From assembly GCA_964016885.1 (NCBI GenBank), contig OZ024740.1:248930001-248994000 (forward strand): a stretch of 64,000 bases of DNA, read 5' to 3'. How positions within the stretch are numbered: position 1 is the stretch's first letter; every line of letters starts with the position of its first letter. The notes below the pieces were generated by a model. It made no database searches and had not been told where the DNA came from. It saw only the letters and a program-made list of their open reading frames with translations. The DNA comes from Eledone cirrhosa (taxonomy: Eukaryota). Positions 900 through 59,845 of this stretch are shown here, in pieces. Both the position numbers and the translations under genes were made by a program.

Positions 900-3112
900 A
901 TATAAGTGGTAACACAACAGTTAGTTCACCATACCGAGAACAATTGTTTCACCTTAGCGGATCTTCAGTTAGTACTGGTCATGGTTATACGGAACAAGAA
1001 GAACAACCGTATGAATGCGCATGTGCAGAAACGTTCATTTCACCCAAGCGATACAAATCCTCGGGCGAAAGGTGTAAGGGAGATAACTGCAAAAGTCCAG
1101 AAAAGATGTTCAAGTTGATAAGAAAATTAGAATGTTGTTATTCAATCCGGAGCTTTGTAGTTATGCAAGAGGTGTTTCCAGACATGTGGACAACGTGAGA
1201 ATATTTCATTTCTTGGATTTGAGGCAATCACTATTGCGTAATCTCCTTAGAATATTTATCCTTTCTTCAATACACAGTTCACAAGACGGATTGCCCCTAA
1301 TGTATGGCTTGGACTTAGTGATGGCTTTCCATTGAATGGAGTAGTCTATACCTGAGTCCTTGAGGGACCATACGTGGCTCGCGAGTTTCATGGCTGATCG
1401 TTTGTCCGGGTACCTAAAGGTCGACTGATGGTTCAGGAAGCATTCCTTAAATCGGCCCGCCGCCATATCCACATAGGATTTGGCCTACTGTGGTTGATTT
1501 GGTCGGCTGGAAGTGACCACAGCTTCATAAACTACAGCGGGTGTGTTGCATTGCTGTTGAAGGGGACAAACTTCAGGCTTTCGGCAAGAGCATCCTGGTG
1601 AAGTGCCGCTCTTAGGACTGTTGGTGATGTGGGCCTTAATTTTCTTAGCGCAGGAGTACCCTGGTTTTACTCTGTGTCTGTTAAAGATGGAGCGGCATTT
1701 GTGAGCTATGGGAAAGTCTTTATCTAAGAGGGCTAAACATTTTTTTCCTACACTAGTTTTAACGTTGAGTGAGAAGGGAGGAGAGAACCAGATAGTTTGT
1801 CTATTGTTACGATTTCTTTTCTTATTGCTGTTGTTGTTAGTGGGGGAGTAAGTAATTGGTTGCGAGAAGCCGCTGTTAACTAACGTCGTGTTGTAGTAGG
1901 GTGCTGCTCTGTCAAAGATAGCCTTATTAGAGGAGAGGTTAGACATTCTAGTACTGATATTATTTACGAAGTTTCTAAAAACAGTAGGTGGGTGGCATGG
2001 GTCCTTGTGTATGTAATTAAGTTTAGCTTATGGAAGGGTCTGAAGGTCTGTGTGCGAAGGTCTAAATTAATGTCCAAGAAATCTATGCTAGAGAGGTTGG
2101 AAGCTACTGTTATCCTAAGTCCTAACTCATTAAACGTAGTAGTTAAGTCTTTTTTAAACTGTTCCAGGTCGTGACCACTTTTGTGGCTCGATAAGGTCAG
2201 GCCATCGTCACGGTATATTCCCGTGTGGAAGTCCGGGAATCTAACACGTAATATGTCTAAAATGAATAGACCAACCAAGTCGCATACGTCAGCACTGTCA
2301 AACGATCGCATGGAGACCTCGAAAAGTTCTGAAGTGGTTGACTTCTTTGTCCAGGCTACTCCGTTGTTGAAGAGGAGGGTTTTCAGGCAGTGTGTAATGA
2401 TCTCCCTGTGTAAAACATGTATGGTAGTGTAAGTGGTAGCAAAGTCCAACGCTATGTTTAACAGGGTCTCTGAGATCGACGGGTAAAAATCTACCATGTC
2501 GAACTGTGTGAACTTCGCTTTTGGGGATTTAAAGGAGTTAAACCACTTAATGATGGAGTCGCTGTTCTCCCACTGGCGCAGGTTGGACTTGGTCCTAATG
2601 GTCTTAACTATGTTTCTAAGTATAGCCTTCCTGACTAGTCCCATATTTGTGCGTGCTGGGTTTAGTAGTCTACACGTGGGATTAGAAGCAAAGTCTACCT
2701 TGTTATCCTTCAGGTTGAGAAACGCTTCAAGCTTAGCTAAGCATTGTAGCTTCTTATCTACCTTAAGGGCGACAGCAAGGTCTTTGGCTTCAGTATTGAT
2801 GTCGTGGTAGGCCATATGGTTAGCCTTCTTATATTTAGAGGTAATAATGTGCCAAGTGGCTGTAAGTAGTGTTGTCGACTTCGTAAACCTTATTGGTTTT
2901 GTCCGAAAGAACGAAAGTGTTATTAGAAGACCTAAATTTCTTAATATCATTTCTAAGTTTAGTTTGGAAGGTGTTAGAGTGTTTGCTAAAGGAAATGTTA
3001 GCGACTAAGTTAAGAACGTCCGCTTCGAAAGGAGCGAGTTCAGTTACCTTAGGAGGGTAGGTTCTCGATTGCAGGTTGAAGGTGTTATTGGTGCCTGTAA
3101 TTTTGCCGTAAA
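900..3112 (-). mobile_element. Penelope-like element (Naiad-type), 5'-truncated, frameshifted RT + GIY-YIG endonuclease
   Basis: ORF pieces 1964..2950 (FDMVDFYPSI, YRDDG, DFLDINL), 1485..1946 (IWFSPPFS, CSCRKPEVCPLQQQC..VVYEAVV) and 1206..1472 (FKECFLNHQSTF..LASHVW..CELCIEE). Confidence 0.9.
931..975 (-). ncRNA. Degenerate type I hammerhead ribozyme in the 3' region of the PLE
   Basis: Minus strand: gtactaa-CTGAAGA-tccgctaaggt-GAAA-caattg-TT-ctcggtat; palindromic stem III ACAATTGT, imperfect stems I and II. Confidence 0.55.
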
Positions 3113-3222
3113 ATAATGAGGTTGGTGTTAGGAAGGGCATCTAGCTGTAGAAATCAAGCCAGAATCAGTTCCTGTCCCACCCTTGCAAGCAGGGAAAAGC
3201 AGACGTAAAATGATGATGATAT
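3113..3222 (+). mobile_element. SINE 3' fragment (RTE-type tail)
   Basis: gttggtgttaggaagggcatc...cccttgcaagcagggaaaag..gacgtaaaa(tga)n, matches the 3' half of the SINE at 4974-5309. Confidence 0.85.
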
Positions 3223-3227
3223 GACGA

Positions 3228-59190: not shown

Positions 59191-59501
59191 TATATATACA
59201 TATATATATATACATATTATATATATATATATATATATATACATATATATATATACATATTATATATATATATATATACATATATATATATATACATATT
59301 ATATATATATATATATATATACATATATATATATACATATTATATATATATATATATATATATATATATATATATATATATATACATATTATATATATAT
59401 ATATATATACATATTATATATATATATATACATATTATATATATATATATACATATTATATATATATATATATATATATATATATATATATATATATATA
59501 T

Positions 59502-59845
59502 ATCATAACACATGTCTAGAGAATCACCAGATAAAATATATACCATTTCCTCTGCCAATTAGCATAATTAACTATATAAAAAATCGAATAGACCAGGCTA
59601 TAAGAATAAGGCTTCTATGAAGAAATCTCCAACAAATAACCGAGACTAGCGCTTCGCATCGGCCGCGGCGGAATATTTATCGAATATTTCGACAGCGTAA
59701 TTGTGCTAATTGGGAGAGGAAATGGTATATATTTTATCTGGTGATTCTCTAGACATGTTTTATGATATATAGCTCTGATTATTTAATTTATTAACCACAA
59801 TTTTTCATTGAGCCACAAAGTGACCCGTTGCAAAACACGTATATG
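59502..59845. mobile_element. Family H2 fragments in direct plus inverted (fold-back) arrangement
   Basis: 59502-59700 matches 52266-52464; 59703-59845 is the reverse complement of ~52185-52329, giving ~70-bp inverted arms. Confidence 0.85.

Follow-up and report, generated by a model that had tools for sequence, protein, structure and literature searches.

Hydra-clade Penelope-like elements (PLEs) are defined by a reverse transcriptase (RT) followed by a C-terminal endonuclease, by the motifs RWK, DKT, CxCx5C, CxxC and CxH, by hammerhead ribozymes and by insertion into (TA)n, whereas Naiads are defined by an N-terminal endonuclease, by DKA and CCHH and by the lack of a canonical hammerhead (PMC8557442). 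For PLE hammerheads, both the palindromic stem III and the dimer model have already been published (PMC4209133, PMC3088659), and for the non-coding retrozymes of metazoans the genomic copying of RNA circles is a hypothesis in PMC7229834 that is left open by a recent preprint (bioRxiv 10.64898/2026.07.22.740005). We analysed a 64,000-nucleotide stretch of the Eledone cirrhosa genome (C1:248,930,001-248,994,000, hereafter the window; assembly 3.0 Gb; GC 34%) that is rich in (TA)n arrays and in fragments of RTE-like long interspersed nuclear elements (LINEs). We read the window, with a probability of roughly 0.7, as pieces of Hydra PLEs with 3′ hammerheads together with three non-coding repeats that were likely copied in trans by PLE RT/endonuclease into (TA)n.

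The nine type I hammerhead motifs of the window almost certainly belong to Hydra PLEs and retrozymes, and they represent the 3′ ends of four Hydra PLE families and three non-coding tandem families. A first-pass annotation of this DNA had proposed a PLE/retrozyme system in which coding and non-coding partners coexist; both partners were indeed found, and the Hydra domain order and motifs, the family structure and the TA targets support the proposal. These are known kinds of element and the headline of that annotation is not new; what is added here is mechanistic.

Judged by domain order and motifs, the coding elements are Hydra-clade PLEs whose GIY-YIG endonuclease is C-terminal, and the Naiad label first given to them has to be dropped. 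We make this assignment because domain order, motifs, hammerhead and (TA)n insertion match the published Hydra definition (Craig et al. 2021, PMC8557442, which includes Hydra-1_Obim). The RT precedes the endonuclease motifs in families A, C, D and E, with single open reading frames (ORFs) of 773 and 809 amino acids, and the motif set comprises RW(K/T) (RWT in family C), DKT (NKT in family B), a CxCx5C linker, CxxC and CxH; the RT motifs agree by eye with the published Hydra alignment. Canonical 3′ hammerheads with a self-complementary stem III, (TA)n insertion, partial tandems, inverted 5′-truncated copies and a tail at one end are further features in common with that clade. A Naiad identity is ruled out by the C-terminal position of the endonuclease, by DKT in place of DKA, by the presence of hammerheads and by CCHH, which was found neither in the endonuclease of the window ORFs nor in intact relatives; what Naiads do share with these elements is PLE membership, the (TA)n bias and the tandem and inverted structure (PMC8557442). 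The endonuclease is recognised by its GIY-YIG-type motif alone, Pfam giving no match to it and recognising no PLE protein, and a profile search of PDB sequences was likewise without a match. A structure model of the family D protein (predicted local distance difference test score 85) has telomerase RT as its best PDB match, and the protein has 293 database relatives of about 700 amino acids, mostly unnamed. Some features differ from the published description of the Hydra clade: families C and D are 3.6-3.9 kb long compared with less than 3 kb, with untranslated regions (UTRs) of at least 1 kb and long stem II inserts, the tails measure 89-118 nt here compared with 30-40 bp, and stem III is here mostly an even palindrome where most published ones have a centre of 1-3 nt (PMC8557442).

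The first coding element is a decayed family A copy on the minus strand (904..3114, 5′ limit approximate), in which an RT (1964-3004), a linker and, at the C terminus, a GIY-YIG, interrupted by frameshifts and stops, are followed by a short 3′ UTR. A first look gave 2926 candidate relatives, the best other copies being 90-94% identical. Its hammerhead (928..978, minus strand; annotated at 931, core at 968, predicted cleavage site 939) has stem III ACAATTGT, a stem I that is broken in the window copy and a stem II of only about 2 bp even in the family majority. Family E is present as a 3′ fragment (6224..6819, minus strand) with a hammerhead at about 6264-6320 (annotated at 6266, core 6308, predicted cleavage site 6270), in which stem II is damaged and stem III ACGATTGT pairs with itself through two G-U pairs. 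The core carries U4C, found in 24/25 copies; a fixed U4C core sets family E apart from the Hydra clade as described, and U4C is a natural hammerhead variant of reduced activity known from a viroid (PMC3088659). A relative at L225:9155 (+) also has C at core position 4, with the G-U-containing stem III ACAGTTGT, and together with family E it suggests a U4C lineage. Elsewhere family E runs contiguously from RT through endonuclease and 1.5 kb of UTR to the hammerhead (L161; endonuclease end and UTR also in L160); the motif at 6266 is the end of a coding element.

Family D (PLE-D) is young and is represented in the window by a head-to-head inverted, 5′-truncated insertion (17270..17693), whose main arm (17542-17270, minus strand) ends at the distal and whose other arm (plus strand) ends at the proximal of two sites described below. 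The hammerhead annotated at 17445 (minus strand, predicted cleavage site 17434) is cut at the inversion junction, where C3 is missing along with stem I's 5′ strand, so that the core is truncated; its stem III is ACACGTGT and its stem II region is about 90 nt long. Elsewhere this family forms 3596-bp tandem units with an intact 773-aa ORF (L165); there, some 2900-3040 nt past the core of the hammerhead, its 3′ UTR also holds an internal array of (TA)n, with sense-strand interruptions that are almost all G. Family C (PLE-C) is represented by a 5′-truncated plus-strand copy (56307..59189) with RT, linker and GIY-YIG at 56385-58022, one internal stop and a 1-kb 3′ UTR; its hammerhead (annotated at 58992, plus strand, core 59000, predicted cleavage site 59054) has stem III ATGCGCAT, and the copy ends at the distal site into TA. 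We consider family C young because 150/150 scored matches are 99-100% identical; these came from a protein search, a DNA search with the 58992 region having given no match. Lastly, a Hydra-type RT fragment of family B (46699..47898, minus strand), lacking endonuclease and hammerhead, lies on the strand opposite to the motif at 46153 and is not its ORF.

The remaining five motifs belong to three non-coding tandem families with units of 469, 652 and 2262 bp, whose longest ATG ORFs are 64, 30 and 96 amino acids, respectively. Thus the claim that all motifs other than two lie in non-coding repeats holds for these five and fails for 6266 and 17445, which are truncated coding-element ends. The 469-bp family is present as 2.1 tandem units on the plus strand (12055..13036) with two hammerheads (annotated at 12303 and 12772, cores 12310 and 12779, predicted cleavage sites 12340 and 12809), stem III ACTAGT, loop II AATA and a proximal-site end into TA, and as an older minus-strand copy of 1.3 units (25974..26605; 91% identical to the former; hammerhead annotated at 26200, core 26237, predicted cleavage site 26207). 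Since three of the motifs fall in this one family, the flanks are not all unrelated as first supposed. The 2262-bp element (44916..46411, plus strand) is truncated with a 5′ inversion and ends at the distal site into TA; its hammerhead (annotated at 46153, core 46157, predicted cleavage site 46206) has stem III ATGATCAT and one mismatch in stem II. The 652-bp element (51905..52909, minus strand, 1.6 units) contains the motif annotated at 52536 (core 52606, predicted cleavage site 52541) with stem III ACCATGGT and a tenth core, cut off, at 51936 (minus strand). Its end is not TA, so that the proposed TA targeting stands for the elements of eight motifs, with that of 52536 as the exception to the claim that all end in TA. 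The 652-bp family is also present as a short inverted insertion of the head-to-head type (59489..59881) that lacks the hammerhead; one arm stops at the proximal site, the other close to the distal one.

From their sequence organisation, the three families fit non-LTR retrozymes as described by Cervera and de la Pena 2020 (PMC7229834) and by Li et al. (bioRxiv 10.64898/2026.07.22.740005), with which they share non-coding AT-rich tandems, a type I hammerhead, a range from monomers to long arrays and PLEs alongside. The 469-bp family forms arrays of at least 10.8 and of 12.1 units, the 652-bp family partial tandems only, of up to 1.6 units, and the 2262-bp family reaches about 1.4 units; its unit exceeds the 51-972 bp range given in the preprint. 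The 469-bp hammerhead, which shares a short palindromic stem III with newt and axolotl retrozyme motifs, scores 31.8 bits with Rfam Hammerhead_HH9, below the gathering score of 52. Its stems covary: compared with two related repeat families, 10/15 pairs change on both sides (5 sequences, structure from one), among them the central stem III pair, which can form only from one copy to another. Window positions 12095-12550 were also matched to sequencing runs, four of which (two studies) contain 71-96% of the sampled 469-bp unit words; none of the runs listed is on record as RNA, and one may have supplied the assembly. Loop II AATA also occurs in further canonical retrozyme families (L169:6746-7715 (-), L157:3448 (+), L207:2705 (-)), of which one is a 310-bp tandem with stem III ACGCGT and another again has ACTAGT, and another abundant family (cluster 4; L251, L230, L205 and others) has a short non-palindromic stem III, AGAACT, and abuts TA directly.

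We found that each family ends into (TA)n at either of two fixed sites 3′ of the hammerhead, about 72-143 nt apart, and that the two arms of head-to-head inverted insertions almost always use different sites. After setting aside insertions with an end at neither mapped site, this was the case for 24/25 insertions of the 469-bp family (29 found, 4 set aside), 21/21 of the 2262-bp family (26 found, 5 set aside), 5/5 of the 652-bp family (6 found, 1 set aside), 10/10 of PLE-C (11 found, 1 set aside) and 5/5 of PLE-D (none set aside). One arm therefore ends at the near and the other at the far site in 15/15 insertions of two coding and 50/51 of three non-coding families, and the window insertions at 17270-17693 and 59489-59881 obey the same rule. 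That PLE insertions bear a tail at one of their ends has been described (PMC8557442), and this tail has been traced to the stretch between two RT start sites (PMC11167929). In that study, the Poseidon element PAc of Anolis (Frangieh et al. 2024) likewise has its tail defined by two RT start sites within the element, and it has an AT-rich target and a predicted dimer, but no strand difference in start site was seen. Because the non-coding families carry the same two-site ends as this PLE tail signature, PLE machinery very probably inserted them; the two-site ends are the best evidence for this, and they leave the partner unnamed.

Movement of the non-coding families by PLE machinery is thus highly probable, and movement by Hydra PLEs in particular is reasonably likely. 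Several points pull the other way. The loci had been chosen for their similarity, overlapping data served to define the two sites and a 50:50 null was assumed; the 469- and 652-bp units have no sequence homology to a Hydra family or to a PLE pseudo-long terminal repeat in the loci compared; and among 21 pairs of tails the best, the 2262-bp family with PLE-D (p 0.004), is lost after correction, the 2262-bp unit giving no tblastn match to PLE-D either. The missing homology would also suit a mobiliser from another PLE clade (Neptune, Poseidon or Naiad) or from the RTE-like LINEs, as would the further hammerhead families without clade assignment in this genome and the fact that Naiads also target (TA)n (PMC8557442). 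We regard such a mobiliser as unlikely: young intact Hydra families with the same target and two-site ends are abundant (24 of the 150 scored family C matches lie in 821-aa open frames), the RTE-like copies of the window end in (TGA)n tails, and cephalopod Naiads have been described as long inactive (PMC8557442).

Next, we found four 469-bp loci with A-to-G hypermutation on the hammerhead-sense strand. At C11:6.43 Mb, the same 16 A>G changes are present in every unit (4.7 in total) of both arms (982 nt or 2.1 units and 1212 nt or 2.6 units), which end at the distal and the proximal site with TA flanks, and each unit has only 0-6 unshared changes. At C2:95.69 Mb, 27 A>G changes occur in 6/15 units, which lie in both arms and alternate with unedited haplotypes; two of the units are chimeric. 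None of the 40 candidates scored, out of 996, showed this pattern elsewhere. At C28:60.89 Mb there are 60 A>G compared with 2 other changes, core positions included, and at C9:47.58 Mb 17 A>G lie in one arm, the overlapping ones being repeated in the other. Edited A residues are preceded by G or C in 14/103 cases compared with 130/326 for unedited ones (p 2e-7). ADAR has a 5′-neighbour preference, which this bias fits, and the A-to-G clusters are very probably RNA editing, such genomic barcodes implying an RNA stage for the 469-bp family. We did not count the apparent A>G clusters of PLE-D, as they sit in its internal TA array, where slippage is possible.

That the clusters might instead be assembly or sequencing artefacts, or bursts of RT error that say nothing about the template, is very improbable. 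It would fit with clusters that are known from assembled sequence alone and are confined to one family, none being seen in six others (34-183 matches each). It would not account for four separate loci with different patterns, for changes that at three loci track the sense strand of the element on both genomic strands, for the strong 5′-neighbour bias or for the exact repetition in successive units, which is unlike errors made at each pass.

As editing is per molecule and the edits are identical in successive units of both arms, the same stretch of RNA appears to have been copied repeatedly. A monomer circle would be the simplest source of such repeats; the pattern at C11 is best explained, on the sequence of its units, by rolling-circle copying of one edited RNA, and we consider a circular template fairly likely. 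Single variants private to an array and common to all its units also occur in 5 other arrays of the 7 with at least 2 full units. In the mechanism that we propose, self-cleavage is predicted for tandem transcripts of the 469-nt repeat, probably in double hammerheads that form by way of the palindromic stem III, and the monomers would be ligated into circles; a protein dimer would nick both (TA)n strands and prime one complementary DNA (cDNA) per site on the same RNA, the enzyme likely rolling round the circle to give arrays of up to 12 or more units. ADAR-type A-to-G changes on the template would act as a molecular barcode that recurs in successive units and in both arms. The full scheme, in which a PLE dimer primes both nicked strands on one retrozyme circle and rolls in both arms while ADAR edits enter germline DNA, barcode the templates and seed A-to-G subfamilies, stands at about even odds.

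The alternative for the template is a linear, uncleaved tandem RNA, with arrays grown and homogenised later by unequal crossing-over and gene conversion and with the hammerhead incidental. Published data favour it in that unprocessed RNA was the main substrate of the anole PLE in vitro, the RNA being uncleaved and the hammerhead dispensable (PMC11167929), and in that 1/9 Xenopus dimers were cleaved and local amplification was proposed (bioRxiv 10.64898/2026.07.22.740005). Our own data contain further points that count against the proposed mechanism. The array at C4:204.33 Mb has variants with 2- and 3-unit periodicity and near-identical neighbours, and in that at C2:95.69 Mb several haplotypes form a mosaic; duplication after insertion or templates of more than one unit therefore also operate. 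At C28:60.89 Mb one and the same DNA strand carries the changes in the short inverted arm and in the flanks, which looks like a linear read-through transcript edited across the inversion. The TA flanks of this locus are ordinary in their rate of interruption. At 2/3 loci, pairing in the predicted monomer circle is no more frequent for edited sites than for others (11/27 and 31/60 paired, compared with 84/121 and 64/88), so that editing may have taken place in a duplex with antisense RNA. Finally, only 1/19 blind-picked loci was hypermutated, the other three having come from searches with edited queries. The linear template nevertheless seems improbable, if less so than the other alternatives, because at C11 opposite arms of more than two units each have all 16 edits in common with 0-6 unshared changes per unit, which would call for two separate expansions and a perfect homogenisation of the edits only, and because edits would be expected to vary between the units of a linear multimer.

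Within the 469-bp repeat, A>G changes at positions 68, 215, 384 and 394, and 166, 301 and 305 (L331-L340, L345-L360), go a good way towards defining subfamilies, and in copies that are not hypermutated A>G and T>C number 115 and 42 (shared ancestry included). The (TA)n arrays are also strand-polarised, their interruptions being nearly all G or nearly all C on a given strand (median 0.15 vs 0.02; window 7599-27680 and 54693-56308, and 89 arrays in L204-L263), for which founder-unit slippage, transcription-linked asymmetry and written-back RNA editing are candidates.

Compared with the published metazoan retrozymes, the two-site ends, the inversions, the TA target and the A-to-G barcodes would be direct traces, in the genome, of the PLE-driven rolling circle that has been proposed. 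Among the titles and abstract openings listed in a limited search of the literature, we found no earlier report of edited genomic retrozyme copies or of two-site retrozyme ends. While rolling-circle copying of edited RNA has been proposed in print as a mechanism, our results suggest genomic evidence for it, of which no earlier case was found in that literature. With the two-site rule, non-coding repeats can be connected to PLE machinery even when they share no sequence with it, and with repeated editing barcodes any animal genome assembled from long reads can be tested for circular templates by sequence alone, so that together they make the rolling-circle hypothesis testable from sequence; for reconstitution, the genome also supplies Hydra proteins that are young and intact, along with start sites that have been mapped. 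If true, the full scheme would be direct genomic proof that transposition passes through retrozyme circles, and it would open a way for RNA editing to become heritable change in sequence.

Next we examined stem III, which the first-pass annotation had described as self-complementary in nearly all motifs. Among the 31 clusters with free inner stem III pairs, 20 are self-complementary by Watson-Crick pairing (3.8 expected; maximum 13 in 200,000 simulations), or 25 when G-U is allowed, and 18 of 33 matches in a blind genome sample are self-complementary. A palindromic stem III is thus common and not universal. This is what is described for the minimal and palindromic PLE hammerheads (Cervera and de la Pena 2014, PMC4209133; Perreault et al. 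2011, PMC3088659), with a palindromic 15.2-16.2 plus loop 3, the dimer model, many divergent families per genome and core variants; unlike in the minimal forms, helix III is kept here, mostly as words of 8-10 nt. Computed stem III energies range from -4.8 to -11.2 kcal/mol for homoduplexes and from +2.4 to +6.0 kcal/mol for monomer hairpins. We slightly favour a need for a dimer in cleavage; for the 8-nt words it may not hold, because most invertebrate retrozymes, with a helix III described as two pairs and a tetraloop, are reported to self-cleave efficiently (PMC7229834). Self-cleavage at the sites given is itself a prediction from sequence.

The same palindromes had been thought to make dimeric cleavage family-specific. 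In 14/15 pairs of equal length the heteroduplexes are indeed weak (-0.9 to +7.7 kcal/mol vs -5.8 to -11.2 for homoduplexes), and 29 different words occur in 35 clusters, as one would expect if these were Naiad elements with palindromes serving as family-specific keys, selected against cross-family dimer cleavage. Specificity is only partial, however, because the words of 931 and 6266 pair fully with each other (-6.1 kcal/mol vs -6.4 and -5.8 for the homoduplexes) and five words recur across clusters (ATATATAT in 3 clusters; ACTAGT, ACCATGGT, ACAATTGT and ACGT in 2 each). As the defining features of Naiads are also absent, and as drift under self-complementarity would give equal diversity while tandem copies would pair in cis anyway, selected keys in Naiad elements are quite improbable.

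All nine motifs were located, each within about 70 nt of its annotated coordinate and with the stem III words as given. For the census, we used a strict type I descriptor (CUGANGA...GAAA...UH with three stems) that is blind to the palindromy of stem III. It recovers 5/9 window motifs, missing those at 931, 6266, 17445 and 46153 because of damaged, truncated or imperfect stems, while 30 block shuffles gave a mean of 0.07 and a maximum of 1 and the reversed window gave 0; a chance origin is therefore rejected, and the claim that the motifs exceed shuffled sequence is borne out. In motif density the window does not stand out from the rest of the genome: across 600 kb, taken as 60 stretches of 10 kb at even spacing, there are 33 strict matches, compared with 0-1 in 5 shuffles, so that 3.5 would be expected per 64 kb compared with 5 observed, and a local hotspot is ruled out, the density being that of the genome average. 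Extrapolation gives about 165,000 strict motifs in 3.0 Gb. The 35 clusters derive from 355 descriptor matches in 1.46 Mb of similarity-picked loci and the window. An Rfam scan of the whole window was dominated by TA-repeat microRNA models, with one hammerhead match among the best 150 of 393 rows.

Other features of the window include an RTE-like LINE (60370-63378, plus strand), whose single open frame of 1002 amino acids combines endonuclease and RT with an inserted PHD finger and which has relatives at 22491-25789 (-), 48496-51437 (-) and 53233-54593 (+), and a 112-bp duplication close to the 3′ end of an RTE (63551-63782). The segment from about 17,300 to 64,000, plus 2.9 kb beyond, has an inverted duplicate about 0.8 Mb away (C1:248.11-248.17 Mb), matched in pieces at about 99% identity; either a true duplication or a haplotype in the assembly may account for it. 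A 16-bp minisatellite of 10.6 copies lies in a decayed LINE fragment at 39919-40088.

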